A stretch of 64,000 nt of DNA from an uncultured archaeon (GTDB taxonomy: Archaea; Asgardarchaeota; Lokiarchaeia; Sigyniarchaeales; SOKP01), in NCBI GenBank assembly GCA_964486045.1, contig CAZALK010000002.1:32001-96000 (forward strand), read 5' to 3'. Under the pieces are notes generated by a model that had not been told where the DNA came from, ran no database searches, and saw only the letters and a list, made by a program, of their open reading frames with translations. Each line of letters begins with the position of its first letter. Position 1 is the first letter of the stretch. The translations under genes were made by a program, and so were the position numbers. Below are positions 20,268-57,303 of the stretch, piece by piece.

Positions 20268-20271
20268 TTTT

Positions 20272-36456: not shown

Positions 36457-37122
36457 ATGAGAAGAAGAAATATTTTAAAACTTTCCATTATAGCAATACT
36501 CTTAGTATCGGTTATTGGAGGAGCTTCAGCCTATCATGAGTATATTTATACTTTTGAAGAAGATCACACTGCCGGTTGTCATAATGGTAACGCTAACAAT
36601 GGAGAAAGCGTAATTGGAAATTTAACGATAACGATTACTCCGAGTGGATCTTTAGAAACCCTACAAGCGTTTACTATTGATGTTGTTATAAACAATTTTA
36701 CAGAGCTTGACAATAGTGCTTATGAGAATAGAACCACCATCGGCATTTCAAAAGATCTTGGAGATAATGCTGCCTTTCTAAGAGGTGTAAGTAATAAATC
36801 TTTTTCCAGGAGAACTAAAGTTGATAAATATGGAAGTGATTTGACACCTACAACACTTGATGCTGTTGCGCCACAAACTGCAGGAGTATACGAGCTTGTT
36901 ATTACAGCTGTCGCAGCTATGAACCAATCAGATGAAAGTGGATACAATTTCACCTTTGCTAAAGGTTCTATTAGTGTGACTGTTGTAGCACCTACTGGAC
37001 CTGCCGCAGCTCCAGGAACAATTTCAGGGGGCATTCTTACAATTATTCTAGGAAGTGTTTTTACTGTCTCTACCGTTATAATACTAAAAATGAGAAAGCG
37101 ATTTAGAAAAAAAGAACTCTAA
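36457..37122 (+). CDS. Exported single-pass beta-rich protein with HTAGCH motif (candidate atypical c-type cytochrome)
   Basis: Signal peptide (ASA|Y), DHTAGCH at 36565-36582, APQTAGVYEL, C-terminal TM with basic tail; directly upstream of ccmC. Confidence 0.65.
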   Translation: MRRRNILKLSIIAILLVSVIGGASAYHEYIYTFEEDHTAGCHNGNANNGESVIGNLTITITPSGSLETLQAFTIDVVINNFTELDNSAYENRTTIGISKDLGDNAAFLRGVSNKSFSRRTKVDKYGSDLTPTTLDAVAPQTAGVYELVITAVAAMNQSDESGYNFTFAKGSISVTVVAPTGPAAAPGTISGGILTIILGSVFTVSTVIILKMRKRFRKKEL

Positions 37123-37135
37123 AATTAGTATTTTA

Positions 37136-37150
37136 ATTTTTTTTTTTTTT
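37136..37150 (+). terminator. Oligo-T archaeal terminator
   Basis: Long T run just after the stop codon. Confidence 0.45.
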
Positions 37151-37255
37151 ATTTAAGAATCTCAAATTTTAAATTGGAATGAAAAAGGTCTTAAATGTTA
37201 AAAAATTTTCAAATTTAATCAAATAGAACAAAAACAAAATTGTATTGATAAGTTA

Positions 37256-37996
37256 ATGAGTATTAATTTACCAAATTTTATTCGAACTAATGGTTTGTTA
37301 ATTATTTCATTATACATGCTATTAATTAACTTATTCTTAATTATTGGATTAAGCGTTTCTAACTTAATAATATGGGGAGAAACGGGCAGAATTGTCTATA
37401 TAGTTTTTTTTTACCATGTATCGGGAGCATGGCTTTCATATTTTTCATTTGGGGTTAGTTTAGTTTCGCATGTTTTATATTTCAAATATAGGGATTTAAA
37501 ATGGAATAGAATTGGTACAATCAGCATTATAGTTGGGATTTTTTTTATTGCTTTTGCATTAATAACAGGATCTTTATTCTACAATGCCACTTCAGGAGGA
37601 TATAATAACATTTTTTGGCAGTGGAGTGATGGAAGGCAAACTATGACCCTTGTATTGTTTCTTTCTTATTTATCATACCTTATTTTTAGAACCATGATTG
37701 AAGATAAAGATAAGAAAGCAAAATTATCATCAGCTCTAGGAATTGCATTATTTCCTACTGTTCCTCTAAGTTACATTTCAGCAATAATATTTACGAGTTT
37801 GCATCCATTGATTAATCCCAGCGCAGGTACCGAAAGTCTCGTATCATACCGTGATCCTATAAAACTTTTTATTTTAATATTTAATTTAATCGCGATTTCT
37901 ATTTTATTTGTTTATCTAGTCCAGAAATTATATAATTTAGATTTGAATAAAGAAAAATTAAATGAAATTATCCAAAGAAAACTAATGGAGGAATGA
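37256..37996 (+). CDS. ccmC: Cytochrome c maturation haem-delivery protein
   Basis: Six TM helices, FFYHVSGAW, ALITGS, variant WWD domain FWQWSDGRQT, and SLHP. Confidence 0.85.
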   Translation: MSINLPNFIRTNGLLIISLYMLLINLFLIIGLSVSNLIIWGETGRIVYIVFFYHVSGAWLSYFSFGVSLVSHVLYFKYRDLKWNRIGTISIIVGIFFIAFALITGSLFYNATSGGYNNIFWQWSDGRQTMTLVLFLSYLSYLIFRTMIEDKDKKAKLSSALGIALFPTVPLSYISAIIFTSLHPLINPSAGTESLVSYRDPIKLFILIFNLIAISILFVYLVQKLYNLDLNKEKLNEIIQRKLMEE

Positions 37997-38148
37997 GTAT
38001 CCTGTCAGTACAATTCCAAGATATCATCACAATCACTATATGTTATTCATTATTTTGGGGTGTTATTATTATCTTAATCCTATATCCTAAACTCCGACTA
38101 AGAAAAATTTTAAAAAGAATTGAAAATTTTGAAAAAAATCTAGACTGA
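37993..38148 (+). CDS. ccmD: CcmD-like small membrane protein (51 aa; not in the ORF track)
   Basis: ATGA overlap with the ccmC stop; MSILSVQFQDIITITICYSLFWGVIIILILYPKLRLRKILKRIENFEKNLD has one TM and a basic amphipathic tail; lies between ccmC and ccmE. Confidence 0.7.
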   Translation: MSILSVQFQDIITITICYSLFWGVIIILILYPKLRLRKILKRIENFEKNLD

Positions 38149-38160
38149 AGGAGGAAATAA

Positions 38161-38499
38161 ATGCATAAATCTAAGTTAATTGCGATTGGAGGAATTGTTG
38201 TCTCAATAATCGTTATTGTTTCATTGATATCAATAAACTCACGACCATATCTCCAGGTTTCTCAAGTTGTATCGAGTCCATCTCAATATAATAATAAACA
38301 AGTTCAAGTTATCGGAATAGTCCAAGGATTTTCTGGTGGAAATTTTAATTTAACCGAAAATGAGCACAGTGTATTGATTGATATGACCGGAGTTTCAATA
38401 CCAGATGAATTAGATAACGGTATACAAGTAGTAGTAACAGGTGTATTTGATTCTTCTTTAATTATAGTTGCGACTCAACTTCTTACGCAGTGTAGCTAA
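38161..38499 (+). CDS. ccmE: Haem chaperone CcmE, Cys type, ending at QCS
   Basis: N-terminal TM; YLQVSQV, QVIGIV, IPDEL..GIQVVVTG and ATQLLTQCS*; SD GGAGG upstream. Confidence 0.8.
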   Translation: MHKSKLIAIGGIVVSIIVIVSLISINSRPYLQVSQVVSSPSQYNNKQVQVIGIVQGFSGGNFNLTENEHSVLIDMTGVSIPDELDNGIQVVVTGVFDSSLIIVATQLLTQCS

Positions 38500-38506
38500 A
38501 TTTGAT

Positions 38507-39232
38507 TCAATCATATAACAGAGTCTGAGAAAGTAAAATTAAGATTGAAATCATAAGAGTAATATGCGCTACTAGGAATATAATTTCATAGAACAACTCG
38601 GATATAAAACTACCCCCCAATATTTTTAAATTTAGAGAGATAATAGGAGCTGTAATTGGTAAAATTAAAGGAAATAATAAAATGGGTAACACAAAGGATT
38701 TATTTTTAACATACATCGAAAAAGCAGATACCATGCTACCGCATATGGATAAATCTAATGTCGGTAATAACACACCTAAAACAATAAAAATACCTAGTTG
38801 AGAAAGGCTCAAATTTTCAACTGACGGTACGGATAAAAAAATGCTGAAAAGGAATAAAATTACCTCAATAAAACTTAATAAAATTAAACAATAGAAAATT
38901 TTACTTAAAAGTATTATATTGCCTGATATTGGGGAAGAGATTAATCCCCCGAGTGTTCCAGACTCTTTTTCTTTAATAAATAACTTTGACATAAGATAAA
39001 TGAGGGTAAAAAAAATTATTAACCAAACTTCAATTACAAAAATTTCTAAAGGCATATTTTGAATTTGAGTGCTGAAGTTATACACCGATGAAAATATAAA
39101 AACTGAGATAATATCAAAAAGAAAAATAGAAAACATATCATTAATTTGCCTAATCTCCGATTTTATATCTTTAAACAGGATTGTTTTAAAAATTTTAAAT
39201 CGTGATTTTTGGTCTTTATCCTTATTATGCAA
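38507..39232 (-). CDS. ccmB: Haem exporter / Ccm ABC permease
   Basis: KDIKSEIR, FIKEKESGTL and LPILLFPLILP. Confidence 0.9.
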   Translation of the reverse strand: MHNKDKDQKSRFKIFKTILFKDIKSEIRQINDMFSIFLFDIISVFIFSSVYNFSTQIQNMPLEIFVIEVWLIIFFTLIYLMSKLFIKEKESGTLGGLISSPISGNIILLSKIFYCLILLSFIEVILFLFSIFLSVPSVENLSLSQLGIFIVLGVLLPTLDLSICGSMVSAFSMYVKNKSFVLPILLFPLILPITAPIISLNLKILGGSFISELFYEIIFLVAHITLMISILILLSQTLLYD

Positions 39233-39247
39233 CTATATGAAGTCACC

Positions 39248-39961
39248 CTAAAAATATGATTCAATTTGAATTTCTCTATATTCCTTTTTGGTAAGGAATT
39301 TATTGACCTTACCTCTTTTTAAAACAACGATTTCATCACAAATTTGTGTTAAGATCTCAATTTTATGAGTGGTAAGAATTATCGACACATTCTCTTTATC
39401 TCTCAACTCTATTAATGCATCAATTATTAATTTAGTTGTATTAAAGTCTAAACCTGAAAATGGCTCATCCAAAAACATAATCGAGGGATGATGCATAAAC
39501 ACCCTTATTAATTCTACTTTTTTTTTCATCCCATGCGATAAATTCTCAACAGGTTCGTGAATCCATTTTGTTAAGTTGAATTTTTTTGCGAATTTTTCAA
39601 TTTTGGTTTTAATCCTATTTTTATCAAAATTTTGGTGCAGATTATCATAGAACTTTAAGTTTTCAAAAATAGTCAATTCTTCATAGAGAAAAGATTCATC
39701 GGTTGAAATCCCTATTTTCTTCTTTAAAGCATTTGAATGGTTAATATAATCCATCCCTTTAATCACAATTCTCCCCAAAGTGGGAGTGATTAATCCACAC
39801 ATGATCTTTATTAAGGTTGTTTTTCCAGCTCCGTTCGCACCTGCTATTCCGATTATTGTATTTTCTTTAGTTTTAAAAGATATATTTTTGAGAGCAAAAA
39901 AGTAACCAAATTGTTTTGATACATTTACACAGTTTATTAATTCTTTTTTAGTCTCAATCAT
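39248..39961 (-). CDS. ccmA: Ccm ABC ATPase
   Basis: GANGAGKTT, LYEELT..ENL, LSHGMKK and LDEPFSGLD; adjacent to ccmB. Confidence 0.88.
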   Translation of the reverse strand: MIETKKELINCVNVSKQFGYFFALKNISFKTKENTIIGIAGANGAGKTTLIKIMCGLITPTLGRIVIKGMDYINHSNALKKKIGISTDESFLYEELTIFENLKFYDNLHQNFDKNRIKTKIEKFAKKFNLTKWIHEPVENLSHGMKKKVELIRVFMHHPSIMFLDEPFSGLDFNTTKLIIDALIELRDKENVSIILTTHKIEILTQICDEIVVLKRGKVNKFLTKKEYREIQIESYF

Positions 39962-40094
39962 GTAATAACCGTATTAACCATATCATATTTTAAAATGAAA
40001 GAAAATTCTATTTGATACTATCGAAAGAATTTAAAATGAAATTCAGCATTTTTATATCTTTAAATTAATAATAGAAAAAAAAGTTTTTCAGAGT

Positions 40095-41834
40095 TTATTT
40101 TATTTCATATTTGGGTTCAAGCTTCTTAATACTCTTTTTTTTTGTAAGGAACAAAGCAAGTATTGAAGGGACTATCCCGATTATTAATATAATAAATCCA
40201 GTAATGAAAAAGATATCTTGATACAATTCTAAATCAGGATTAATTAAAAATCCTATCATAATGAATGAAATTCCTACATGGATAATCGTTTTTGAATTTA
40301 ATCTAAAAAAGTATACAAATCCTTTTCTAATTTTAATATTCTTTGATAATTTGAAGATGGAAGCAAACATTGATGTGAAGTAGATTACCATTATCGGATT
40401 TATCCATACATTCAAGAGAAATAATAGTATGTAGGAAACGACTAATTGGATTGATATTCCAATAAGAATTGCTGCTATTATCCATTTAACCTCAAAATAC
40501 TCCCATAAAGAACAAAATATAAGTGTTACGGCTAATCCCACAGCTAACGTCAATGTTGTAATGATGAAGTATTCAGGACCGATATAAATAACATTGATGG
40601 GAAAATAACTTGACAGCAATAGAGTGAATGGAGGAACAAAAAGTCCAAAAATACAAACGAATGAGAAGGCAAACAAAAGAATATAACTCAAGTAGTTAAA
40701 GAAAAGCTTTTTATTCTTATATTCCTCCATTAAATAATCTAATACAATATATATAACATAAAGAGAAAAACATAATAAAATGAGTCCCACAACTACTACC
40801 CAGATTACTAACTCTGCTCCTCCTGCAAAAGAGTGGAGAGGACTTAGATTACCAGTTCTAGTAATAAGTGTAGAAAAAATAATTGCAAAGAAAATTAAAC
40901 TTACGTTTATTTTAATTAATAACGGATTTTTTTTTTTAAAAATTATTGTATGGAAGAATGCTGTAATAAAAAACCATGGAACAAGCAATACTGTTTCAAC
41001 TGGATCCCAACCCCAATATCTTCCCCAATTTAAAGCAATTTTAGCCCAATAAGCACCTAATCCAAGGCTTAAAGTTGAAACTAACCATCCAAATTTTAAG
41101 GAAAAATCGTAAAAATTTCGTTGATAGGAATTCAGCAATTTAGAGTTTCGAGTCATCACCTCAGCAATGATAATTGTAAAAGGGATTAAGAAGATCGCAT
41201 AGGTAATGAATGTAAAAAGTGGGTGCCAAATCATAAAGGGAGATATTAAAAGGGGGTTTAAACCTCGGCCAGTTGGGAATGCAAGTGTTAATTCAACGTT
41301 AAATGGGTTCATTGAAAATAAAATTATTGAAAATATTGTCGAAATAATTAAGGATGTTATTACAGAGCGTATAAACACTAGATCTTCTTTATTTTGATTC
41401 TTGATTCGATAAAAATTTATTACGATTGAATTAAACAGCATCCAGGTCATGATGGAACCGTCTTGACCTGCCCAAATCGCTACAATCTTATATATTAAAG
41501 GGAGTGTCGTAGCATTATAGTTCATGACATATACTACTTCGAAAATATTATTCAGAAAACTATACATCATGAGTATAAATATGACTAATGATAAACTCAT
41601 GTTGACTAAAGAGAAAATATAATAGTTCTGTTTTTTTATAAATAGAAAAATTATATCAACAATCATAAGAGCAATTAGTAAAAGAAGAAATAAATTACCT
41701 AAGATTAAGATAACAAAAATTCTATTACTAATTTCGATGAGGTCTAAAAGCACAGGAATGAATACAAATAAACTTGCCATTAGTACAAGATTAAGCGCAA
41801 TAATTTTTTTTGTTGATATTTGACTAATCTTCAT
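40095..41834 (-). CDS. ccmF: Cytochrome c haem lyase
   Basis: WAGQDGS, GRGLNPLL, MIWHP, LGAYWA...WGRYWGWDPVE and PLHSF. Confidence 0.93.
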   Translation of the reverse strand: MKISQISTKKIIALNLVLMASLFVFIPVLLDLIEISNRIFVILILGNLFLLLLIALMIVDIIFLFIKKQNYYIFSLVNMSLSLVIFILMMYSFLNNIFEVVYVMNYNATTLPLIYKIVAIWAGQDGSIMTWMLFNSIVINFYRIKNQNKEDLVFIRSVITSLIISTIFSIILFSMNPFNVELTLAFPTGRGLNPLLISPFMIWHPLFTFITYAIFLIPFTIIIAEVMTRNSKLLNSYQRNFYDFSLKFGWLVSTLSLGLGAYWAKIALNWGRYWGWDPVETVLLVPWFFITAFFHTIIFKKKNPLLIKINVSLIFFAIIFSTLITRTGNLSPLHSFAGGAELVIWVVVVGLILLCFSLYVIYIVLDYLMEEYKNKKLFFNYLSYILLFAFSFVCIFGLFVPPFTLLLSSYFPINVIYIGPEYFIITTLTLAVGLAVTLIFCSLWEYFEVKWIIAAILIGISIQLVVSYILLFLLNVWINPIMVIYFTSMFASIFKLSKNIKIRKGFVYFFRLNSKTIIHVGISFIMIGFLINPDLELYQDIFFITGFIILIIGIVPSILALFLTKKKSIKKLEPKYEIK

Positions 41835-42155
41835 ATAAATTACCTCAATTGGAAATATTAATGAAAAATAATAAACATTTTCAATACTTATATTTTGGAC
41901 TAAAATGGGGAAATTTTAGCTATAATGGTTGTTCTGTGAGAGGAGATTTTGGTTAACTCTAAGTCTATTTTTATATAATTTTGGGACATATGTTAGATTT
42001 TTTCTATTGTTTCAAGATCAACTTTATTATCCTTGATTTTCTTCTTAAATAAAAAAAAATGTAAAATTTATAATTTAAAAGAAAGATTTTTTTCTATAGT
42101 CAAACTATTATTTTAATGATTATTTTTTACCATTAAAGAATTTAGTCTTGGATTC

Positions 42156-42482
42156 ATGTCAATCGAATTAACAAACAAATCCCGGGAATATATTGGTAAG
42201 AAGAATATAAACAATTTGTTTATTGATTTAATTTATATGGAGGAATCCTGTGCACAAATTTATGACCCTAAGATAAGAATAATTGAAAAAAGAGATCTAG
42301 AAAAATTTGAAGATTATGATAATATTTCTATTGATAATTTAACTTTATATATTTCAAATGCATTTACTAAAATTTATGGAAAACTTGACAAATATCTCCT
42401 GGATACAAGTGGGATTGTTAAGAAGAGTTTAGTTCTTAGGAATGTAGACTCAATTATAAGAAATATCTGTAAACCAAAATAA
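42156..42482 (+). CDS. Hypothetical protein (weak HesB-like appearance)
   Basis: 108-aa ORF co-oriented with TlpA and CcdA; two Cys; family not established. Confidence 0.5.
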   Translation: MSIELTNKSREYIGKKNINNLFIDLIYMEESCAQIYDPKIRIIEKRDLEKFEDYDNISIDNLTLYISNAFTKIYGKLDKYLLDTSGIVKKSLVLRNVDSIIRNICKPK

Positions 42483-42511
42483 AATCAAAAAGGAATGACG
42501 CTCCTAGAGTT

Positions 42512-43045
42512 ATGAAAAAAAAAATTTCACAAATACTTCCTCTATTTGTTATTGTTTTTGGAGCTATTTTTTTTGTCACCTTTATAGGTTTTGTAGCAAT
42601 ATCCGAATCTGGGAACACGGGATCTAATTTATACAACACAGATTTACCGTATGTAGATATTGACGGAGAGACAATAAGATTAACGGATCATAACGAAAAA
42701 GTCATAATTTTATATTTTTTTTATTTGAGTTGTCCATATTGTAAGATTTCAGATCCTTTTTTAGCAGCTATAGAAGATGATTATTTTAGCAGTCAGTTAT
42801 TAATCATTACTATTACTATTGCTACTGCAGATTCAGACATAAACCTTAATAATTGGAGAAATAACCTTAACGCTTCTTGGAATATTGTTCGTGATGACAT
42901 AAGTCTCACCTACGCCAGTAATTGGGATGTTGCATATACTCCTACAGCAGTAATTATCCATCTAGATAGCAATTTCTTGGAAATAATTGAGGGATCACTT
43001 AATTTTGATGCTAAAGTAAGAAGTGAACTTCAATTATTAATTTAA
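42512..43045 (+). CDS. Membrane-anchored TlpA/ResA-like thiol-disulfide oxidoreductase
   Basis: N-terminal TM, DIDGETIRL, FFYLSCPYC and the cis-Pro motif YTPT. Confidence 0.88.
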   Translation: MKKKISQILPLFVIVFGAIFFVTFIGFVAISESGNTGSNLYNTDLPYVDIDGETIRLTDHNEKVIILYFFYLSCPYCKISDPFLAAIEDDYFSSQLLIITITIATADSDINLNNWRNNLNASWNIVRDDISLTYASNWDVAYTPTAVIIHLDSNFLEIIEGSLNFDAKVRSELQLLI

Positions 43046-43102
43046 ATTATGAGAATATTTCTCGTCTAAAATCCAAACCAAAGTAATCTAATCCATTTAT
43101 CA

Positions 43103-43846
43103 ATGACAGATGTTTTTATTTTTTTTTTAGTATTAGGTGGTGGAATCCTTTCTTTTATCGCTCCCTGTAATATAGCTGTTTTACCATCTTTTATAAGCTA
43201 CGTTGGAAGTCAATCAAAAACTGCAAAGAAAAGCGCGTTATTGAGTCTATTCTTCTCATTAGGTTTTATTTTTATGTTTACTGTAATCTCTACTTTAATT
43301 ATTATTATTAGTGGTTTTATCAGATACACATTTTGGCTAAAGTTGTTTTCTGGAATAGTATTAATTCTTCTTTCTATCTATCTGTTTTTTTATAAACAGG
43401 TATCATCATCAACTCCTAAGTCGAATCTATCTTTAGAGGAAATAGATAATGAAGGAAATCATGCTCAAGATTTAAAAGGTGGATCGACTATAGATAAATC
43501 TAAAAGGAATTATGAAGGTTATTCAGGATCTTTTTTCCTCGGTTTTTCGCTAGCTTATTCATGGCTCCCATGTGTTACTCCCATTTACATGTCGGTGGTC
43601 ATAATTATTTCAAATCAAGCAGATTTCTTACTTGGTATCATTTTGTTTCTAGTTTATGGATTAGGAATTATGATCCCTTTTATTCTAATTGGAGTTTTAA
43701 TCGGGGTAATAAAGATGAGGTTTCTTGTAAAATTAATGAAAATAGGATCTAAGATTCAGAAAATTTTTGCTTTAATTTTATTTTATATAGGAATTGAGTT
43801 AGTTATGTCTGCGTTTGGGATTCCTGGTTTGATACCTTATTTCTAA
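43103..43846 (+). CDS. ccdA: Cytochrome c biogenesis protein CcdA (DsbD-beta)
   Basis: SFIAPCNIAVLP, WLPCVTP and YGLGIMIPF. Confidence 0.92.
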   Translation: MTDVFIFFLVLGGGILSFIAPCNIAVLPSFISYVGSQSKTAKKSALLSLFFSLGFIFMFTVISTLIIIISGFIRYTFWLKLFSGIVLILLSIYLFFYKQVSSSTPKSNLSLEEIDNEGNHAQDLKGGSTIDKSKRNYEGYSGSFFLGFSLAYSWLPCVTPIYMSVVIIISNQADFLLGIILFLVYGLGIMIPFILIGVLIGVIKMRFLVKLMKIGSKIQKIFALILFYIGIELVMSAFGIPGLIPYF

Positions 43847-44585: not shown

Positions 44586-45476
44586 ATGAAAAAAAAGGCT
44601 CTTATTATTTTTTTAAGTATCTTTAGTTTAATGATTGCGTTTGCAGCATTTAATGGAACGGCAAGGCCTGGTTATGGTGAAAATCATAGTGCTTGCCATG
44701 ATTCAGCAGGATATACGATTGAAACTAATGTTGAAGGGGATATTCTAGCCACTAATTCTTCAAATGTTGTTTTTAATATAACAGCGACGGGTACTAACTT
44801 GTTTGTGCAAGTAATTCCTGCCGCTGAAGATAATGATCTTTTTGTGATTTCACCCTCTACAAACAGAATAAATGATAGTTCGATAAATGATTTGGACCCA
44901 ACGGCAAATTCGATAATAGTAGAATTTAATGTCACAACACCTGCAACTGATGGTTATTACACTATTTTTATAATTGCAGGTGATGATACAACTGGTTCAG
45001 CCATAGATTTCGCGTATCACCGAATTATTATTAATGTCGGAGATGTTCAGGCACCTGTTGAAGATCCCATTGCAAAAATATTTTCGGCAATATTTGATCA
45101 TCTGGGATTTTACTTAGGGATGCCAGCCCTAATATTCTTATCGCTTGGAACTGTTTTAGTGTTAGTAGATGAGAATAAATTCGTCAAGTCGCATGGATTT
45201 CTTGCTGGAGCTTCTTGGATTTTGACCGTAATCAATGTAACAGCAGCCTTTATAAAAATTGAACCTCAAGCTTGGTTATTGGGTTATGAGTTGATTTATC
45301 ATATTCCTCACATAATTTTAGGAGCTGTAGGGTTAGTAACTGGATTTATTAGTATGTTATTCGGAATTGCAGCTGAACGACGTCCAGCCAGATTATGGGG
45401 ATATATAACATTAATTTGCTGGTGGGCAGCCTTCTTTACAGGTTATTTATTGAAACCTAATCTCTTCATATTTTAA
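44586..45476 (+). CDS. Exported HSACH-motif domain plus 4-TM His-containing (b561/DUF420-like) membrane domain
   Basis: Signal peptide; NHSACH at 44685-44699; TPATDGYY; TM histidines in FDHLG, KSHG and PHIILG. Confidence 0.7.
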   Translation: MKKKALIIFLSIFSLMIAFAAFNGTARPGYGENHSACHDSAGYTIETNVEGDILATNSSNVVFNITATGTNLFVQVIPAAEDNDLFVISPSTNRINDSSINDLDPTANSIIVEFNVTTPATDGYYTIFIIAGDDTTGSAIDFAYHRIIINVGDVQAPVEDPIAKIFSAIFDHLGFYLGMPALIFLSLGTVLVLVDENKFVKSHGFLAGASWILTVINVTAAFIKIEPQAWLLGYELIYHIPHIILGAVGLVTGFISMLFGIAAERRPARLWGYITLICWWAAFFTGYLLKPNLFIF

Positions 45477-45507: not shown

Positions 45508-46995
45508 ATGAGAAAGACAAATAACAAACAAGTTAAAGAAAACAACAAACGAGTAGAAGAAAGGGACCTCGAGAGTCAATTTTTGGATTTTATATCCTCT
45601 TATCATGTTAGCACCAATCGATATGAACTTGAATCTGCTTCGGCTGATCTCACTTCATTACCATCCTATCATTATAAATTCAAAAATAAATATCTTGCAA
45701 GTTATATAGTTCGTCCAGCTAATACTGATGAGCTTTCCTTAGCAATTAAAAAGTGCAGGGATTTAAAAATCCCAGTTACAATTAGAGCTGCCGGTACGTC
45801 TTGCTTTTCTTCAGCAACGCCTTCTAAAGGTGGTGTTATTATTGATGTGCGAAGATTAAACAAAATCGTTGAAATTGACGTAGACAATAAAACAGTTAAA
45901 GTTGGGTCGGGGATTTCATGGCTTAATTTAATAGAAGCACTTGCAGATTATGGACTTGAACCTAAAGTTTTTCCAACAAGCTTTAAGACCTCATGCGTGA
46001 GCGGTTTTATTGCAACCCCGGGAAATGCAGGTATAGGTGTTATTAAATATGGCTCGATGGAGGATTCAATTATTTCATTAGAATTAGTTAAGCCTGACGG
46101 GTCAATAATTAAAATTTCAAAAGATTCCAAGGAAGAAATTTCTATTCATGATGTTATAGGAACATATGGAATTTATGGAGCGGTTGCGAGTGTTGAAATA
46201 TCTATAACTACATTGAAGACTTCATTAGAGATAATTGGTTATGGTTTTGACTCTGTTGAAGAGGCTTTCAACTTTTATTCAATAATTAAAAATAACCTCC
46301 CAAATAAACCCTTGTTCCTCTCAATTTCTGAGAGAAATTTCGAAAAATATTCTCATGTTAATTTCCCTGAAAGTGAATGGTTAGTATGGGCAGTTTTCTT
46401 TGATGATCCTGAGGAAACTTCAAAAAGTGTATCAGACATTAAAGATCATGCTTCCACACTGAATGCTGTTGAGGTTGAAAGTTCATATTTAAAAGAAAAA
46501 TGGCGGGATATTAGCGATGCTGAAGTAGCAATTGGATTATCAACAAGAAATTTAATATTTCAAGAATATTGGGTATCTGATGATAGAATAAAGGATTTTA
46601 TAGAACGTTACGTAAATAATCGAAAGAAATATAAATTTCCTGTTGCTTCTTACGCAATTTCAGGAGAAACGGGATGGACTCGGTTAAAAATCTTTGGACT
46701 TACTGATATCAACAGAACCCGAGAATTTTTCGCTGTTAAAGCTTTCTTACATGATTTGGCTGTTCAAGCATTCAGTCAGGGAGATAGACTCTATACTATA
46801 GGGATTGTCAATACTTTTTACTTACTTAAATTTAAAAAAGAGGAAGTACTAAACTGGAAAGCTTTGAAAGATAAATTAGATCCCCAATACTTGTTTAATT
46901 CACATCGATTAATTAAAGCTAACATGAAATTCTGGCGTGTAGCTCTGTTATTTAAAATGGCTAAAATCATGTACAAAATTTTTTGGAAAAAATAA
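45508..46995 (+). CDS. FAD-binding oxidoreductase (GlcD/D-lactate dehydrogenase superfamily)
   Basis: VRP...VTIRAAGTS...GGVIID, GTYGIYG and LDP..LFN; no C-terminal EHG motif. Confidence 0.82.
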   Translation: MRKTNNKQVKENNKRVEERDLESQFLDFISSYHVSTNRYELESASADLTSLPSYHYKFKNKYLASYIVRPANTDELSLAIKKCRDLKIPVTIRAAGTSCFSSATPSKGGVIIDVRRLNKIVEIDVDNKTVKVGSGISWLNLIEALADYGLEPKVFPTSFKTSCVSGFIATPGNAGIGVIKYGSMEDSIISLELVKPDGSIIKISKDSKEEISIHDVIGTYGIYGAVASVEISITTLKTSLEIIGYGFDSVEEAFNFYSIIKNNLPNKPLFLSISERNFEKYSHVNFPESEWLVWAVFFDDPEETSKSVSDIKDHASTLNAVEVESSYLKEKWRDISDAEVAIGLSTRNLIFQEYWVSDDRIKDFIERYVNNRKKYKFPVASYAISGETGWTRLKIFGLTDINRTREFFAVKAFLHDLAVQAFSQGDRLYTIGIVNTFYLLKFKKEEVLNWKALKDKLDPQYLFNSHRLIKANMKFWRVALLFKMAKIMYKIFWKK

Positions 46996-47102
46996 ACTGA
47001 ATGTTAAAATCAAATATAATAAAAAAGGAATAAAATATAACGATTTAATTTAAAATAATAATATTTTCAACTATTAAAGTACAAAAAAAGAGCGAATAAT
47101 AA

Positions 47103-48449
47103 ATGAGTGAAGGTAAAGAAAAGGAGGATTTAAAAAATGTAATTACTTCTGGTCCACCAGTAGCGGGGTTAGTCTCTCCTTCGAAAGAAAATCTTGTTGA
47201 ACCTACAGATCCAAAAGATCCAAAATACTCCTATGAACGTTGTACTCACTGTGGGTATTGTCGCCATGTTTGTAAAGTATATAATGTTTCTTGGAGTGAA
47301 ACTGATTATGCTGGTGGTCGAAACAGAATTATCAAAGCGCTTGATCGTAAGGATATTAAGTTTGACAAAGAAGATATTATCCCTTCTGTTTTTCGCTGTA
47401 TGTTATGTGGAAATTGTGCTGTTGTTTGTCCAGTGGGAGTTGATACTCTAAGTGTATTTCAACACTTTAGAAAAACAGTTGTAAAAAAGGGGGCGATGCC
47501 AGAAAAATTAAAAGTTTTAAGAGGTTCAATTATGGAGAATAATAATCCATTTCTTGAAAAACATGTTGATAGATTCAACTGGTGCGATTCCTGTGAAGAA
47601 GGGGCAAGAGCTTACGAACGTGCAAAACAAACTTCTGCTGTAAATGAGGGAAAACAAAACTCTTATAAGGTTGGCTATTTTACAGGCTGTACTTCTGCAT
47701 ATAGAAATAAGGAACTCGTTTCTGCTACAAGCCAAGTCTTGGAAAAACTAGGTATTGGATTTGTGGTTTTTCCTGAAGAAAAATGTTGTGGATCTGTTTT
47801 ATTTAGAACCGGATTAGAAGATGATGCTCTTGAAGTTGTGAAAAGTAACTATGAAATGATTCAAACCAGTGGGGTAGATGAGGTAGTTTTTTCTTGCTCT
47901 GGGTGTTTTTCAACCTTTATGTTAGAGTATTCTAAATTTGCAGGCGGTAATCTTGGATTCAATCTTTTTCATATAACTCAATACGCCTTAAAAGTTGCAA
48001 AAGAAAAAAATCTAAAGATAAGATATACAAAACGATCTAAAGAGGATCCCTTAATTATAACCTACCATGATCCTTGTCATTTAGGGAGATATTGTGGCGT
48101 TTATGAAGAACCAAGGGAACTTATTCGAAGAATAGAGGGGGTAAAGTTGTTAGAAATGAAACATAATAGAGATATGTCTTGGTGTTGTGGGGCTGGGGGT
48201 GGAGTGAAGGCTCTCTATGGGGATATCGCAGTAGAAGTTGGGAGAGACAGACTAGCTGAAACTCGTGCTTGTATGGTACGGATCCGGGAAGATCGTTTGA
48301 AAGAAGCTTTGGAAACTACTGCTGAAGTCTTAGTTAGTTCTTGTGTTTTTTGCAAGAATAATCTATTCCAAGTAGCAAATGAAGATAATTCGGCTATTAA
48401 AGTCATGGATATCTCACAGCTTTTGGCTGATTGTGAATTTATTAGATGA
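47103..48449 (+). CDS. GlcF/HdrD-like Fe-S oxidoreductase (2x[4Fe-4S] plus 2 CCG domains)
   Basis: CTHCGYCRHVC, CMLCGNCAVVCP, EKCCG, YHDPCHLGR, CCGAGGG and SCVFC. Confidence 0.9.
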   Translation: MSEGKEKEDLKNVITSGPPVAGLVSPSKENLVEPTDPKDPKYSYERCTHCGYCRHVCKVYNVSWSETDYAGGRNRIIKALDRKDIKFDKEDIIPSVFRCMLCGNCAVVCPVGVDTLSVFQHFRKTVVKKGAMPEKLKVLRGSIMENNNPFLEKHVDRFNWCDSCEEGARAYERAKQTSAVNEGKQNSYKVGYFTGCTSAYRNKELVSATSQVLEKLGIGFVVFPEEKCCGSVLFRTGLEDDALEVVKSNYEMIQTSGVDEVVFSCSGCFSTFMLEYSKFAGGNLGFNLFHITQYALKVAKEKNLKIRYTKRSKEDPLIITYHDPCHLGRYCGVYEEPRELIRRIEGVKLLEMKHNRDMSWCCGAGGGVKALYGDIAVEVGRDRLAETRACMVRIREDRLKEALETTAEVLVSSCVFCKNNLFQVANEDNSAIKVMDISQLLADCEFIR

Positions 48450-50088: not shown

Positions 50089-50335
50089 AAAAGAGAACAA
50101 TAATATTCAAAAGTTAGATATAACTGGGAAAGTTTGTCCGATGACTTTTGTTTATACTAAACTAACTTTAGAAAAAATGAATTCTGGAGAAATTCTAGAA
50201 GTTACATTAGACTTTCCAGCTGCAGTAAAAAATGTGCCTACAAGTTGTGAAAGGCAAAATATAGGAGAATTACTGGATACTAAAACTATCGACAATGAAA
50301 AAAAAGTTTGGATTCTTACAATCAAAAAGATTTAA
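50042..50335 (+). CDS. TusA-family sulfurtransferase
   Basis: LDITGKVCPMT; true start probably 50069-50081. Confidence 0.88.
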   Translation: MKPIIIRSVMHVLVSEKENNNIQKLDITGKVCPMTFVYTKLTLEKMNSGEILEVTLDFPAAVKNVPTSCERQNIGELLDTKTIDNEKKVWILTIKKI

Positions 50336-50347
50336 GGCAAAAATGAT

Positions 50348-51376: not shown

Positions 51377-51601
51377 CGAATTCTATTGTTTTTTTGAAGT
51401 TTAACAACTGAGCTGAGAAGGGGTAATTTTCTCTTAATAATAATTTCATTTCAGCTTTAAATATGTGTGATTAAGATTTTTCCTTGAGAAATCAATTTGT
51501 GTGTATAAACATTACGTATTTATCGCATTTAGATAATATATAAATAAAGCTTCTATTTCTATTGACATACAAGAGAACTTAATATTATTCTAACAAATTT
51601 A

Positions 51602-54600
51602 GTGTGTATTATTATGATTTCTAAAAAGAAAAATTTTTTTGAGAATTCTGATAACTTTATATCTCTCATTACTGAAGTGACAAACGATTTGCTAGTTGTA
51701 ACTCAAACTGATTATAACTTTAAAATTCAATTTATTAATGATTGTATCTTCTTGGAGAGATTAGGATATTCACGTAATTCAATAGAAGAAACTTCATTTT
51801 TGAATTTAATATATCTCGATGATGTTGAGAAAACAGTGAATTATTTAAAAAATAATATAAATTCTACGGCTCAATCACAAGAAATAAGAATCAAATCAAT
51901 GAAGGATAAATTTATTTGGGTTGAAATTACGGCAAAAAAATTTACTTATGGGGCTACTGATGAACAGATTTTGATAAATCTAAGAGATTTAACAAAACAA
52001 AAAGAAATTGAAGGTAAATTAAAAGAATCAAAACAAAAATTTGAAATATTTAACGAAAGATATCAGAATCTATTTAAAAATATGTTTGTAGGTTTCGCCT
52101 ATCACAAAATTATCGTGAATAAAGAGAATAAACCAATTGATTATGAATTCTTAGAAGCAAATCCTGCTTTTGAAAAACTTACTGGTTTAAAAGTAGATGA
52201 AATAGTTGGCAAGACTGTTAGAGAAATATTACCAGGAATAGAAAATGATCCTACAGATTGGATCGGGAAATATGGTAAGGTCGCACTATCGGGAATTCCA
52301 ATAACCTTTGAAAGCTATGCAGAACCTCTCGATCAGTGGTTTAGTATTACTGCATATTCCCCCAAAAACGAATATTTTGCTGTTATATTTACGAATATTA
52401 CTAAACACAAAAAAGCAGAATATGAGCTAAAGGAATCCGAAAACAAATTTAGGACCTTATTTGACAATGTTGGAGATTCTATAATAATTGTCGATCTTGA
52501 CAGTAATATACTTGAAGTTAATAAGACGGCATGCAAACACTTAGGATATTCTAAAGATGAATTGCTAAAAATGACACCAATGGATTTAGTGACTCCTGAA
52601 TATGCGGTACTTATTCTAAGTCGAATAAAAGAATTAACCCAAAAAGGTAGTGCTTTTTACGAGAGCATTACTGTTTCTAAGGACGGTGAAATACGTCCAG
52701 TTGAAATAAGTTCAAAAATTATTAATTATAAAAATGAAAAAGCAGTTCTTAGTGTAATTAGAGATATTACTGAACGAAATAGAGCAAAAGAAAAATTAAA
52801 AGAATCAGAAGAAAAATACCGATTAATTTCTGAAAATGCAAATGATATGATTGTAGTTCTAAATGATAAATTCGAATATGAATATCTTAATGAAAACATG
52901 CATAAACATTTATTAGGTTATTCAAAAAATGAGTTATTAGGAAAAACTCAATTGCATTTAATACATCCAGATGATTTAAAGCAAACAATCATTGCAACTA
53001 GTAGAATTTTAAGGAAAGGGAAAGGATCCCATCAAGTTAGGTTCTTACATAAGAATGGATCTTATAAGTGGTTAGAAATAACAGGCAAAACTTTTTTTGA
53101 TAGTAGAGGTGATAAAAAGGTTTTAGCAATATCAAGAGACATTACAGATCGTAAAGAAGTAGCAAAGAAATTAGAAGAATCAGAAGAAAAGTATCGATCC
53201 TTGTTTGAAAATATGAATGTTGGTTTTGCATATCATGAGGTCCTTGTTGATGACGAGAATAAACCTATCGATTACAAATATATTGAAGTAAATCCTGCCT
53301 TTGAGAAATTGACTTCCTTAAAAAAGGAAGATTTAATTGGGAAAACTGTTACTCAAGTATTACCTGGAATAAAGAATGATCCTGCAGATTGGATTGGTAA
53401 ATTCGGGAATGTTGGACTCACGGGAATTCCTTTAAATATAGAAGAATATTCAGAACCAATAAAAAAATGGTATAAAGTTTCAGGTTATTCTCCTAAGAGA
53501 CGGTTTTTTGCAGTAACGTTTACAGATATAACTGATCAAAAAGAAGTTGAAAGCAGAATCAGAGAATCTGAGGCTAAATATCATGATTTATTTGAAACAT
53601 CTCCTCTTGGAGTAATTCTTACTGATTTAAAAGGAGATATTATAGAATGCAATTCTGCTATCGAAGATATCACAGGATATCCGATTGAGAAATTCATTGG
53701 TAAAAACATCAGGGATTTAAGTATTTATTATGAAAATGGGCTTAAAGTCTTATTAGAAGGATTTAAAGACCTGTTAAACCAAAATAAATTGGAATATGTT
53801 GAGTTTCAGATAAAACATAGAAACAATCGATTAAGATGGGTTCAATTAAAGTCGAGAATCGTGAAAAGAAAGGAAGAAAGTTTCATTTTATCTGTTGTAA
53901 ATGATATTTCTACACAAAAAACGGCAGAAGAAGCATTAAAAGAAAGCGAAAAAAAATATAGAGACTTATTAGATAGTTCATCAATAGGTGTTATGGAAAT
54001 AGATGTCATAAACAACAGGATTTCCTATATTAATCCCAGATTATTAGCTATTATTGGTTATAAAAAAGAAGAATTAACAGGAGTGGCAATCCGTGATAAA
54101 ATTATCCATCCAAATGATTTAAGTAAATTAATCCCATCAAGTGAGGAAACAGATCTAGAATTTAGAATTATTGATAAATATGGAAATCTGAAATGGTTAA
54201 ATGGGAAGAAAATTCCTCACTTTGATGAGAATAAGGCTATAGTTAGTGTTAGATTTTGGCTAGATGATATTACTGAGAAAAAAATGTATGAAGAGCTTAT
54301 CTATGAGTTAAATATCAATTTCTTAAATTTTACCGCAGATATTAGAAATAATATAGAATTATTATTAAACACAGGGCTTAAATTACTAAATGGGGATCTT
54401 ATCCTGTATGCTCATAAGAATAGTTCAGATGGGGAAGAAAATTATCAGCTAATATCTTCAGATAATGAATCCCTTGTTTATACCCCTGAGGATTTTTTTG
54501 AGAATCTCTTTATAAGCGAGATCTTCAAGGAAGAACACGATTTTCCTCAATCATATTTTGATGTTGATAAAAAAAAATATGCAAGAACCGATCCATTTCT

Positions 54601-55513
54601 CAAAAAAAACGGAATTAAGGGTTGCTTTGGAAAAATTATCAGATCTCAAGACGACTTAGATAATGTTGTCTGTGTTTATTATAAAGAAAATCCTAAAATT
54701 ACTGGTCAAGATAAATTAGTAATGTTTTTAATTTGCGATGCAATCGAAATTGAACAAAGACGATGGCAAGTACAACAAGATTTAGAAAAACAAAACATTA
54801 CCTTAAATAAAATGAACCATTTGAAAACTGAGTTATTTTCGAGGACGTCTCATGAATTAAAAACTCCTTTGATATCAATTAAAGGCTTTACTGAACTTTT
54901 GCTAACACTCCATAAGTCTAAATTAGATACTGAAATGATATCAATTTTAGAAGAAATAAAAGAAGGCAGTAAACGTCTAGAAAAAACTATCAATTTGCTC
55001 CTTGAAGGTACGAAATTAGAAGCAGAACAATTAGAATTGAATCTTAGGGACGATGATTTAGCATTTCTAATAAAATTTTGCGTTAAGGAATTAAAGGGAC
55101 TCGCAACGCTTAGAAATCAAAATGTATCAATTAACTTACATGATGAATTAAAGACCGAATTCGACAAGGAAAGAATTTATGAGGTTATGTCAAATTTACT
55201 TCTTAATTCAATCAAGTATACACCACCAGGGGGAGTAATCTCAATTTTCTCTGAATCAAATGATAATTTTTATATAATTTCAATAAAAGACAACGGAATA
55301 GGATTTACAGAAGAAGAAAAAACCCAAGTTTTTAAGCAATTTGGAAAAATTGAACGTTACGGTCAAGGATGGGATGTTGCTATAGAAGGAACCGGTCTTG
55401 GGCTTTATATTACTAAAAAATTAGTTGAATTACATGGTGGAAAAATTTGGCTTGAATCGGAGGGAAGAAATAAAGGAAGTACATTCAAATTTTCCCTTCC
55501 AAGGAGAAATTGA
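51602..55513 (+). CDS. Soluble multi-PAS sensor histidine kinase (about 7 PAS, GAF-like, HisKA, HATPase)
   Basis: Repeated DIT/ESEEKYR linkers, SHELKTPL, NSIKYT, DNGIG and GTGLGL; no TM segment. Confidence 0.93.
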   Translation: MCIIMISKKKNFFENSDNFISLITEVTNDLLVVTQTDYNFKIQFINDCIFLERLGYSRNSIEETSFLNLIYLDDVEKTVNYLKNNINSTAQSQEIRIKSMKDKFIWVEITAKKFTYGATDEQILINLRDLTKQKEIEGKLKESKQKFEIFNERYQNLFKNMFVGFAYHKIIVNKENKPIDYEFLEANPAFEKLTGLKVDEIVGKTVREILPGIENDPTDWIGKYGKVALSGIPITFESYAEPLDQWFSITAYSPKNEYFAVIFTNITKHKKAEYELKESENKFRTLFDNVGDSIIIVDLDSNILEVNKTACKHLGYSKDELLKMTPMDLVTPEYAVLILSRIKELTQKGSAFYESITVSKDGEIRPVEISSKIINYKNEKAVLSVIRDITERNRAKEKLKESEEKYRLISENANDMIVVLNDKFEYEYLNENMHKHLLGYSKNELLGKTQLHLIHPDDLKQTIIATSRILRKGKGSHQVRFLHKNGSYKWLEITGKTFFDSRGDKKVLAISRDITDRKEVAKKLEESEEKYRSLFENMNVGFAYHEVLVDDENKPIDYKYIEVNPAFEKLTSLKKEDLIGKTVTQVLPGIKNDPADWIGKFGNVGLTGIPLNIEEYSEPIKKWYKVSGYSPKRRFFAVTFTDITDQKEVESRIRESEAKYHDLFETSPLGVILTDLKGDIIECNSAIEDITGYPIEKFIGKNIRDLSIYYENGLKVLLEGFKDLLNQNKLEYVEFQIKHRNNRLRWVQLKSRIVKRKEESFILSVVNDISTQKTAEEALKESEKKYRDLLDSSSIGVMEIDVINNRISYINPRLLAIIGYKKEELTGVAIRDKIIHPNDLSKLIPSSEETDLEFRIIDKYGNLKWLNGKKIPHFDENKAIVSVRFWLDDITEKKMYEELIYELNINFLNFTADIRNNIELLLNTGLKLLNGDLILYAHKNSSDGEENYQLISSDNESLVYTPEDFFENLFISEIFKEEHDFPQSYFDVDKKKYARTDPFLKKNGIKGCFGKIIRSQDDLDNVVCVYYKENPKITGQDKLVMFLICDAIEIEQRRWQVQQDLEKQNITLNKMNHLKTELFSRTSHELKTPLISIKGFTELLLTLHKSKLDTEMISILEEIKEGSKRLEKTINLLLEGTKLEAEQLELNLRDDDLAFLIKFCVKELKGLATLRNQNVSINLHDELKTEFDKERIYEVMSNLLLNSIKYTPPGGVISIFSESNDNFYIISIKDNGIGFTEEEKTQVFKQFGKIERYGQGWDVAIEGTGLGLYITKKLVELHGGKIWLESEGRNKGSTFKFSLPRRN

Positions 55514-55674
55514 AAGTTTCCTCAAAATCCCAATTCCGTCTTATTTTAAATTTTTAATATTATCTGATAGTCAATAGAAGATTTAGAAGAATTGGACTCC
55601 TAATTTTTTTTAAAACTTGTTTTTTATTATTATATTGATGTTGATTTTATTAACCCTTTCCTGCAAAAATAAAG

Positions 55675-55920
55675 GTGAGAAGAATTAAAGGAGATAAGGA
55701 AGACCATGAACTAGAAGAGATAGAAGAAGTCAAAAAGTATTTTAAAAGAAACTATTCAATATTTTCAAAAAGAGTTCGAGAGTTACTAATGGATTTAGAG
55801 CTTCCTGAAAATAGAAAAAAACTTCTAATAAAGGAACTAGCTTTTTTACCAGAAAAAAAACAGATTAAATATATTGAAGAACTTTGCAGAATTTCCAACG
55901 TTAAAATTAGAGATTCTTAG
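55675..55920 (+). CDS. Small helical hypothetical protein
   Basis: 81-aa ORF; its C-terminal half resembles the tail of 1260..2597. Confidence 0.55.
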   Translation: MRRIKGDKEDHELEEIEEVKKYFKRNYSIFSKRVRELLMDLELPENRKKLLIKELAFLPEKKQIKYIEELCRISNVKIRDS

Positions 55921-56391
55921 ACGTTTCTTTTTTTAAAATTAAATTTTAAGAAAAGCATTTAATTTCTTGAATATTGGGGTTAAAAATAAAATATTTTTAT
56001 TAAAACAATATAAATTTAAAAAGTTGAGATGTAAATTAAAAGCCTTTCTTAATTTTAATGTCATTAAGTATGAGAAATAACTAAATTTGTATATTTTATT
56101 TTAAATTTCTTTAATTAATTTTTTATGATAAACTGTTTTACCCAAATTGAGGAGTTTTTGATTAAATTGAAACAAATTAGGAAGTAAAGTATATTACAAT
56201 TAAATACTAAAATCTTTACAACGAATATGATTATATGATTGAATTTGCTGAAAATCCAGTAAAAGAGAGATAATCTCTTCTATTGAAAAAAAAAAAATGG
56301 ACTTAGAAGTAAGTTTAATTCTGAAACCGAACAATTCAAATACTAAAAAAAATTTTAAAATAAAACAAATTTTATAAAAAGGATTTTCAAT

Positions 56392-57303
56392 ATGAAAAAG
56401 AGAATCATAGGAATATTATTTTTTTTTATAAGTGCCGTTACACTACTTTTCGTTCTAAACGCAACCGCAATCCCTCCTTATGGAAATGATCACAATTCTG
56501 CTTCATGTCATAATTCTCTCTCTGGAGCGTATACAATTACAACAAATACAACAGATATAATTACAGCAGATAATTCTTCAGTTATTAATATTGAAATAAC
56601 AGCCACAGGATCAAATTTATTTGTACAGGCTCGATTTAATGCAAAAGATAATGATGAGTTCGTAATTACAACTCTTAAACTAGAAGATAACACCGGATAT
56701 GATACAAATCCTAGTTTAAATGCAATGACAGTTGTTTTTAATATCACTACTCCAGCAACTGATGCTTATTACACTCTTTTTATCATAGCTGGAGATGACT
56801 TAGCTGGTCGGCCAGAGTTTGCTTATGCAAATATTGGGTTTAGTATAGGCGGAGTTCTTCCTCCGACAATTCCTATTGATTACATTGGAATAATTTTCTC
56901 TCACACAGCTAATTTTATTATAGGCGGAATAGCTATAATTACTCTCGCAGTTGGTACTGTCTTGTATTTAGTTAATCAAGAAAAATTCACTAAATCTCAT
57001 GGTCTTCTAGCTGGTACATCATTAATTTTCACGACAATCAACATAGTAGCAATAATTCCGTATTTAGCAAAACAGGGAGTCTTACTAGGTGTGGTTCAGT
57101 CATTACCCCTAACCTTTTTGCATATCATTTTAGGGACAATAGGATATGCAGCGGGAATCATAGCTTTTATAGCTGGGTTAAGCGGACATAGATCGAGAAT
57201 ATACGGTTTTATTGCTTTAGGTTGTTGGAGTTTTAATTATATACAAGGTTTTCTATCACTAATGGCTGCATTAAGTATAGTTCCAGCGGGGTTTATATTA
57301 TGA
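56392..57303 (+). CDS. Exported HNSASCH-motif domain plus 4-TM His-containing membrane domain (paralog of 44586..45476)
   Basis: Signal peptide; DHNSASCH at 56491-56511; shared ITATG.NLFVQ, TTPATD.YYT, KSHG and HIILG. Confidence 0.7.
   Translation: MKKRIIGILFFFISAVTLLFVLNATAIPPYGNDHNSASCHNSLSGAYTITTNTTDIITADNSSVINIEITATGSNLFVQARFNAKDNDEFVITTLKLEDNTGYDTNPSLNAMTVVFNITTPATDAYYTLFIIAGDDLAGRPEFAYANIGFSIGGVLPPTIPIDYIGIIFSHTANFIIGGIAIITLAVGTVLYLVNQEKFTKSHGLLAGTSLIFTTINIVAIIPYLAKQGVLLGVVQSLPLTFLHIILGTIGYAAGIIAFIAGLSGHRSRIYGFIALGCWSFNYIQGFLSLMAALSIVPAGFIL

Follow-up and report, generated by a model that had tools for sequence, protein, structure and literature searches.

Three exported proteins encoded around a cytochrome c maturation (Ccm, System I) gene cluster of a Lokiarchaeia archaeon carry a haem-type motif in which a His stands in the place of the first Cys of CxxCH. 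Their genes, here called P1, P2 and P3 (Table 1), lie in the 64-kb stretch that was analysed (C2:32001-96000, "the window"), which belongs to a genome of 5.18 Mb with 31% GC and a completeness of 99%; a close P1 homologue is labelled Candidatus Lokiarchaeota. The His/Cys variant of the motif is real and conserved, and apparently unpublished. To judge from the sequences, P1-P3 are likely to bear covalent haem made by Ccm. The fuller reading that we favour, tentatively since it may about equally well prove wrong, is that they would be monohaem cytochromes of the c type that face outward from a membrane anchor, depend on the adjacent variant of System I for maturation and hold their haem by one thioether. 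We read them as c-type because homologues have Cx1-4CH at the same place and because P1-P3 co-occur with ccm.

A conserved His/Cys motif in a family of exported proteins

Re-reading the sequence confirmed the three open reading frames (ORFs), with the coordinates and motifs given in the preliminary description. Signal peptides, called by eye and with a hydropathy heuristic, are predicted to be cleaved after A25, A26 and A26 in P1, P2 and P3, which leaves 11, 7 and 7 residues ahead of the first His (codons CAC/CAT). Each ectodomain has a single Cys, as had been described, so that the two Cys of the CxxCH or CxnCH of c-type cytochromes, found in homologues, are missing from all three. C41 is the sole Cys of P1; P2 and P3 have one other (C278 in both), which in P2 is located inside the last transmembrane helix. 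A membrane anchor had been proposed for the three proteins and this holds for P1, with its single helix, while the C-terminal part of P2 and P3 is a membrane domain of four helices. The pattern of the apoproteins is that of Sec export. Export of P1 by the twin-arginine (Tat) route, hinted at by its RRRNILK, was rejected: a twin-Arg is found in just 8 of 150 His-forms (members with His at the first position), and no TatC above cut-off was found in the genome.

A sequencing error or chance origin of the motif was also rejected, given its recurrence in relatives and a chance expectation of only 0.02 for H-x(2-5)-C-H at residues 26-60 among the ca. 170 signal-peptide-like proteins of the genome. 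The number observed was four family members plus one unrelated match. The fourth His-form (C5:152750, THGGCH) is followed by a form without the upstream His (C5:154442, STIGCH) at a second locus. There, the P2-like His-less gene precedes a gene for a transmembrane-fused HdrC-like protein and an HdrB-like gene.

Sequence comparison places P1-P3 in one predicted immunoglobulin (Ig)-like domain family, related to choice-of-anchor V of NCBIfam (NF041895). When 1.84 billion representatives were searched with a profile, 128 of the best 150 matches carried CH, with patterns H-x(2-5)-CH and C-x(1,2,4)-CH; the first position was His in 70, Cys in 39 and neither in 19. The alternation of His and Cys, proposed earlier as a check, is thus found within one homologous family. 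The Cys-His pair is invariant in both ectodomain alignments (47 and 76 sequences, mean identity 22-29%) and, when the family is aligned as one domain, there is no invariant position besides C, H and one Phe. The first residue sits 2-6 places ahead of the Cys of Cys-His, with parallel spacings in the two forms (1-4 for Cys, 1-5 for His). The closest pair is P2 (PGYGENHSACH) and its counterpart in locus L149 (PGYGEDCGECH), where a P2/P3-GlcD-CCG unit with the motif CGECH and the same gene order lies near ccmF/A/B, together with two His-form paralogues. In one set of homologues, f31, all 35 members read have two Cys and mostly adjoin GlcD/CCG genes and canonical Ccm; they group with a protein labelled Thorarchaeota, and the motifs of these Thor-like proteins are Cx1-4CH. 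A tree built without the motif columns requires at least 10 His/Cys switches, with weak support; it is unrooted, has few columns and some spurious rows, and does not give the direction of change. The first His is not strictly required, as single-Cys forms without it occur in genomes with Ccm.

NF041895 was matched by 42 of the 76 family members at E up to 0.1 (best 5e-10), over model positions ca. 5-135 of 150. The curated cut-off of 42 bits was reached by none of the 10 members checked (best 39.6 bits), P1, P2 and P3 do not match the model, and the window proteins had no Pfam match to Reeler (PF02014). Monohaem cytochromes with a Reeler/spondin fold have been predicted in Ignicoccus (Igni_0759 and Igni_1052; PMC4429474). 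The announcement of a new cytochrome class was therefore overstated, since choice-of-anchor V or Reeler-like monohaem candidates had already been predicted; the novelty is the His motif and the maturase, not the fold family. Literature searches, with most subscription journals outside their coverage, retrieved a single, unrelated paper for HxxCH, with none on haem, and no paper for "choice-of-anchor V".

The AlphaFold model is a seven-stranded Ig-like sandwich with a mean confidence (pLDDT) of 83.5 and ca. 60 for the first 20 residues. In the P2 model, H9-C12 (mature numbering) forms one helical turn before H13, as CxxC does, with moderate confidence in this stretch. The matches of Foldseek and VIA were generic Ig-like, with no solved Reeler domain among the matches listed; neighbours in a structure atlas are Reeler-annotated clusters (TM 0.59), and a sequence search of the PDB gave nothing meaningful. 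The likeness to cytochrome f that had been suggested turned out to be weak (Z 7.2, root mean square deviation 4.2, 128 aligned residues, 9% identity, rank 25 of 48,161), below the trust level of the tool and behind unrelated Ig-like domains. The predicted mature N-terminus is ca. 13-16 residues before the Cys and often starts with aromatic-Pro (Pro at +2 after the predicted cleavage in 101 of 238 members). Beyond the motif, the ectodomain of the family has no conserved His or Met.

Other architectures of the domain are found among relatives. Giant surface proteins (800-1,700 residues) with a His-form domain at the tip (L028:8911-13452, L129:9887-14428, L149:3102-8270) are inserted in or beside the ccm cluster in many of them, and are absent from the window. 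In the homologue P0044 (L271:8550-9856), a His-form ectodomain and one transmembrane helix are fused to a Fer4/CCG Fe-S domain; the contig, labelled Hodarchaeota by its source, has an adjoining CcmF-like gene. A P1 homologue by a ccmF copy of genome G022 has the variant motif H-E-H-C-G-H (L036:9149-9925).

The variant Ccm system and its candidate clients

All the genes of the archaeal System I* set (ccmA, B, C, E and F) are present, with ccmC, a ccmD-like gene and ccmE facing ccmF, ccmA and ccmB; ccmH and ccmI were not seen in the ccm locus, the only place considered. The ccmD-like ORF is syntenic between ccmC and ccmE in most loci. P1 is directly upstream of ccmC, as stated before, with a gap of 134 bp, and a P1-type member is found immediately upstream of ccmC in most loci of the relatives examined. 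P2 adjoins ccmF or is one gene away in 11 of 11 close relatives; P3 is at ca. 14.5 kb from ccmF.

That the Ccm is specialised, as had been anticipated, is borne out by its CcmE and CcmC. The Tyr at +4 of CcmE is absent in all 30 copies read, with the Cys retained, and 27 of them end in Q-C-S-stop. Read-through of the stop restoring CxxxY was rejected, as the TAA lies 7 bp from the converging ccmB and relatives have a stop at the same place as TAA, TAG or TGA. The WWD region is W-x-W-[SG]-D in 28 of 28 copies of the window-type CcmC in place of the canonical W-x-W-D-P-R, and W-N-W-D-P-R is found in 27 Thor-like copies and in contig L150. Thor-like CcmE has C-[PL]-S-[KR]-Y/F, and Thor-like CcmF has a C-terminal soluble insert that the window CcmF lacks. 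L150 combines a truncated CcmE and the canonical WWD with a C-x-C-H protein (CGCH) directly before ccmC-ccmE, so the truncation of CcmE alone is not specific to His-forms; the CcmC insertion may be specific to them, with L150 as the one data point. Both changes follow lineage, and therefore no causal tie to the His motif can be drawn. The loss of the Tyr need not decide function either, since it is dispensable in E. coli CcmE (PMC3601427). A second type of CcmE, ending in Y-C-C-D-R-S-x-G-V, was seen in G006 and G126 (L128:3761-4030 and L127:1477-1770); G006 has two ccmF copies, and its ccmC was not found using the query from the window.

We analyzed co-occurrence in 161 genomes of the class, 29 of them with CcmE; G103, with ccmF beside a fragment, is the 30th Ccm genome, and G006, missed by the CcmC-protein search, was recovered by the CcmE family search. 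All 29 CcmE-positive genomes have the family, and ca. 129 have neither. Cys-forms are absent from all 29, and 28 have His-forms; in total there are 74 His-forms (P3 counted) and 6 His-less forms. Conversely, no genome with a His-form (28 in all) lacks CcmE, and in the window ccmABCDEF is adjacent to P1. The association of His-forms with Ccm suggested at the outset was thus found wherever context was available, in genomes and contigs alike. Three genomes without detected Ccm (G055, G043 and G155) have a homologue, none of them a His-form; that of G055, a one-contig genome, has lost the Cys (G-A-H).

The proteome of the window's genome was scanned in full for motifs, and the other Ccm genomes by probes for particular proteins. 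Of 40 CxxCH strings, none was in an evidently exported protein (by hydropathy heuristic). The statement that the window encodes no exported canonical CxxCH is literally true, and had overlooked the exported CxxxCH protein upstream of P1 (EB_dh/DOMON-like, Table 1); no other exported protein of the genome was found to have a two-Cys haem motif. The CxxxCH protein is accessory, being present in 3 of the 30 Ccm genomes, and was rejected on this count as a general reason for Ccm retention. No multihaem protein was detected in the 30 Ccm genomes with two probes (PF13435 and Thor-type). In most Ccm genomes no clients other than the one-Cys proteins were found, the complete scan being that of the window's genome alone. 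The CxxxCH protein has a paralogue at 31718-32857 (+) with a single Cys, in P-C-M; both have Loki-CTERM-like tails, and a gene for a 349-residue polytopic protein lies between them. Near the ccm/GlcD/CCG island, Thor-like genomes encode an exported multihaem protein of 19 Cys, in which CxxCH occurs alongside motifs of longer spacing.

Proposed haem attachment and the alternatives

In c-type cytochromes the first Cys (Cys1) binds the 2-vinyl and the second the 4-vinyl of the haem (PMC3601427). In the reading that we favour, the unfolded chain would leave via Sec, CcmABCD would put haem onto the Cys of the Tyr-less CcmE, and CcmF would link the single substrate Cys to the 4-vinyl, with the His of Cys-His as proximal Fe ligand. 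The upstream His would fill the place of Cys1 by the 2-vinyl, unbonded and packed against the ring edge. This location is probable because Cys1 normally binds the 2-vinyl and one-Cys substrates stall on CcmE. The His may also aid haem release from CcmE, the step at which one-Cys substrates stall in E. coli; release by a reverse Michael reaction has been discussed (PMC3268396). With no conserved His or Met for the sixth ligand, the simplest candidate would be the amine of the mature N-terminus, which takes this role in cytochrome f, and the position of the mature N-terminus and the aromatic-Pro start suggest such ligation in the family. P2 and P3 might then shuttle electrons between a cytoplasmic GlcD-like FAD/CCG Fe-S module, a His-ligated haem b in the four-helix domain and the surface haem c, with P1 as a surface relay.

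Several points weigh against this reading. One-Cys substrates are very poor clients of E. coli Ccm and become trapped as a CcmE-haem-cytochrome cross-link (PMC3268396). The family is known from sequence alone, and even the Cys-form Reeler-like monohaem proteins are predictions (PMC4429474). The His is kept in 74 of 82 archaeal family members and so may have a role beyond packing. The domain can persist without Ccm, since Cys-His homologues are carried by G155 (93% complete, D-N-C-H) and G043 (78% complete, C-N-C-H), in which no Ccm was detected. The co-occurrence counts overstate independence because of the kinship among the genomes and because the block travels as a single island. Outside the window's genome, where the motif scan is not decisive, there may be additional two-Cys Ccm substrates. 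Finally, a search for hemC in five near-complete Ccm relatives found it in none of them. This is no specific argument against His-forms, since five Thor-like genomes with canonical motifs all gave the same negative result; scavenged haem is likely the norm in the Ccm relatives.

One alternative would give the haem two covalent links, a Cys thioether to the 4-vinyl and a His-N bond to the 2-vinyl, with the His replacing Cys1 as nucleophile. The exact positional match of His and Cys1 in homologues, the same variable spacing and the repeated switches on the motif-free tree all speak for it, as does the presence of both forms beside one Ccm in L149. His-vinyl chemistry is known from holo-CcmE and, given that one-Cys substrates stall cross-linked, a second nucleophile would solve release (PMC3268396). 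However, 6 of 81 members of Ccm genomes, C5:154442 of this same genome included, have no upstream His or Cys; such a form is the sole complete member seen in G126, and in G211 and G212, where CcmF is present, both members are of this kind. Since single-Cys His-less forms occur in Ccm genomes, Ccm may not need a second nucleophile, and this tips the balance to a non-covalent role of the His. We consider this alternative unlikely. The first His had also been proposed as the second axial ligand, giving a bis-His haem with one thioether. It has no conserved competitor in the ectodomain, a bis-His single-thioether haem is known in SfmD (PMC8179489), and the several paralogues per genome could pair, so that the ligand might go to the haem of a neighbouring copy. 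Yet Cys1 is replaced position for position, the distance of the His from the Cys is variable (spacing 1-5) and Cys-forms have the same layout without this His. Besides, the two His, 3-6 residues apart, are modelled on one helical turn, which would put the opposite haem face out of reach (the ligands of SfmD are ca. 38 residues apart). Bis-His ligation seems quite improbable.

A different possibility is that the proteins bear no haem c, and that the two His, the Cys and the N-terminal amine bind Zn or Cu, or else haem b non-covalently as a scavenging receptor of haem auxotrophs, with Ccm serving other proteins, for instance the CxxxCH protein. His2-Cys is a plausible metal site, the sandwich is generic, some members are giant surface proteins, hemC and AhbA are missing from most of the Ccm relatives tested, which would need haem uptake, and Cys-His homologues exist in the two genomes without detected Ccm. 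Against this, 27 of the 30 Ccm genomes have neither the CxxxCH protein nor a multihaem protein that we could find, and yet keep an intact Ccm flanked by His-forms; homologues have textbook CxxCH; the Cys is lost in the Ccm-less G055; and the family is fused to or syntenic with redox enzymes rather than transporters. A non-haem-c site appears rather unlikely. The proteins could also be degenerating relics of CxxCH cytochromes that have lost haem binding, as the partial or full motif loss of some homologues might indicate, but paralogues that share ca. 20-30% identity retain His, Cys and His in 28 genomes with intact ccm, and we regard decay as highly improbable.

Gene neighbourhood, meaning and comparison with known systems

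Table 1. Position and character of the genes and motifs discussed (window numbering unless a contig is named)
Feature	Position	Strand	Character
Ahb siroheme-route haem cluster	13913..23582	-	hemB, hemL, ahbD, ahbA, ahbB-cysG, hemA, hemC, cobA-hemD, ahbC
EB_dh/DOMON-like surface protein (PF09459)	34485-35732	+	Exported, C-A-T-F-C-H (C147, C151, H152)
P1	36457-37122	+	Signal peptide, H37-x3-C41-H42, Ig-like beta-sandwich, single C-terminal transmembrane anchor with basic tail
P1 motif HTAGCH	36565..36582	+	H37-T-A-G-C41-H42
ccmC	37256..37996	+	Haem-ligand H54 and H183 retained; WWD motif with one-residue insertion (WQWSDGRQ)
ccmD-like	37993..38148	+	51-residue transmembrane protein; PF04995 E 0.009 and TIGR03141 E 0.03, both below cut-off
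ccmE	38161..38499	+	Cys-type, ends T-Q-C-S-stop, without Tyr of CxxxY
ccmB	38507..39232	-	PF03379
ccmA	39248..39961	-	ABC ATPase (PF00005 and position)
ccmF	40095..41834	-	Canonical WWD motif, four conserved His
Thioredoxin-like (CcmG-like) gene and ccdA	42512..43846	+	Accessory
P2	44586-45476	+	Signal peptide, H34-x2-C37-H38, P1-type beta-sandwich, four-helix transmembrane domain with three conserved His
P2 motif HSACH	44685..44699	+	H34-S-A-C37-H38
GlcD-like FAD oxidoreductase and Fer4/CCG (GlcF/HdrD-like) Fe-S protein	45508..48449	+	Downstream of P2
P3	56392-57303	+	H34-x4-C39-H40, four-helix transmembrane His domain; P2 paralogue, 46% identity
P3 motif HNSASCH	56491..56511	+	H34-N-S-A-S-C39-H40
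Second GlcD-like and Fer4/CCG pair	57300..60091	+	Downstream of P3, followed by hdrC/B/A-like genes
Second locus	L021:10751-15581 (C5:152750-157580)		His-form P1 paralogue, then His-less (I-G-C-H) P2-like gene
Thor-like multihaem proteins	L226:1803-3194, L227:212-1555, L236:1687-3060, L239:18108-19508		

P2 is the first gene of a P2-GlcD-CCG unit, and P3 overlaps the start of the second GlcD-like gene. This gene order, together with the P0044 fusion, supports a transmembrane redox role for P2 and P3. The three His of their membrane domain are kept in at least 90% of homologues; DUF420 and cytochrome b561 (PF03188) gave weak matches (7 of 50 each), and the structural matches (Z up to 11.5) are generic bundles. 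ccdA is found in 4 of the 30 Ccm genomes and in 27 genomes without Ccm. Its absence from 26 of 30 fits one-Cys substrates, but we did not count it, because it is also dispensable in Methanosarcina acetivorans (PMC9084895). The Ahb pathway of the window is complete, and AhbA was above the family cut-off in this genome only among the 161, which suggests that the cluster was acquired recently, in a lineage made up mostly of haem auxotrophs. The cluster adjoins genes for sulfur assimilation at 6538-13851 (cysteine synthase, sulfate adenylyltransferase-like and sulfite reductase-like). A divergent pair of Lrp-like regulators of 187 residues with a Cys-rich tail was seen at 28731-30207, and many relatives have, ahead of their P1-ccm block, pairs of ORFs that match it in length and number of Cys.

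System I has been described as needing two Cys, and here its main apparent clients have one Cys and a conserved His. The natural His-form and Cys-form homologues are swappable, and make haem exit from CcmE and the need for Cys1 testable. By CxxCH screens (the method of PMC4429474), about one fifth of the Lokiarchaeia-type genomes analysed would be scored as free of cytochrome c despite a full Ccm; judging by their genes, Asgard archaea with His-form proteins probably make cytochromes that such screens overlook. The transmembrane anchor and the GlcD/CCG partners suggest that electrons are carried across the membrane in a lineage for which models usually assume fermentation and syntrophy. It is doubtful that an Asgard variant of System I equips mature electron carriers with a haem bound by one Cys thioether plus one His-vinyl bond; if true, nature would have a third way of attaching haem c by enzymes, and Lokiarchaeia would possess a hidden outward electron conduit.

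HdrDE, TmcABC and DsrMK are membrane redox complexes that combine a CCG protein with a b-type anchor. P2 and P3 share with them the His-bearing transmembrane subunit by a Fer4/CCG protein and an outer c-type haem domain (predicted here), and differ in that their four-helix anchor is fused to the predicted haem domain and paired with a GlcD-like flavoprotein. Cytochrome f starts with Tyr1-Pro2, and the aromatic-Pro start of many members, the N-terminal haem motif on a beta-sandwich and the C-terminal transmembrane anchor recall it. In contrast, the window proteins have no small domain and no b6f genes were seen, so that the resemblance is one of analogy only.

Haem ci of cytochrome b6 is attached by System IV. 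Euglenozoan cytochromes c and c1 with A/FxxCH hold a single-thioether haem made by the kinetoplastid system (PMC8262978), and keep the second Cys and the proximal His. Both are cases of natural single-thioether attachment, with other maturases and folds, and at position 1 there is a non-polar residue instead of His. The earlier view that single-Cys attachment is known mainly from these two has to be extended with a prokaryotic case, SfmD, whose HxnHxxxC binds its haem autocatalytically (PMC8179489); it stands in so far as SfmD is likewise not Ccm-made. SfmD also has one Cys and two His in its motif, but it is cytoplasmic, with a TDO-like fold and another motif order.

The closest known counterparts are NF041895 and, in design, the Reeler-like monohaem proteins of Ignicoccus, exported beta-sandwiches with an N-terminal C-H haem-type motif in which the haem is likewise only predicted (PMC4429474); the window proteins differ by the His in place of the first Cys. 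As for the maturase, archaeal System I* of M. acetivorans consists of CcmABCEF, its CcmE CxxxY has been called universal and ccmD was reported absent from archaea (PMC9084895). The window Ccm shares the ccmA/B/C/E/F set, a Cys-type CcmE and the haem-ligand His of CcmC and CcmF. It departs from System I* in the C-S-stop of CcmE, the W-x-W-[SG]-D of CcmC, the CcmD-like gene and the shorter CcmF, and in that its apparent substrates carry one Cys.

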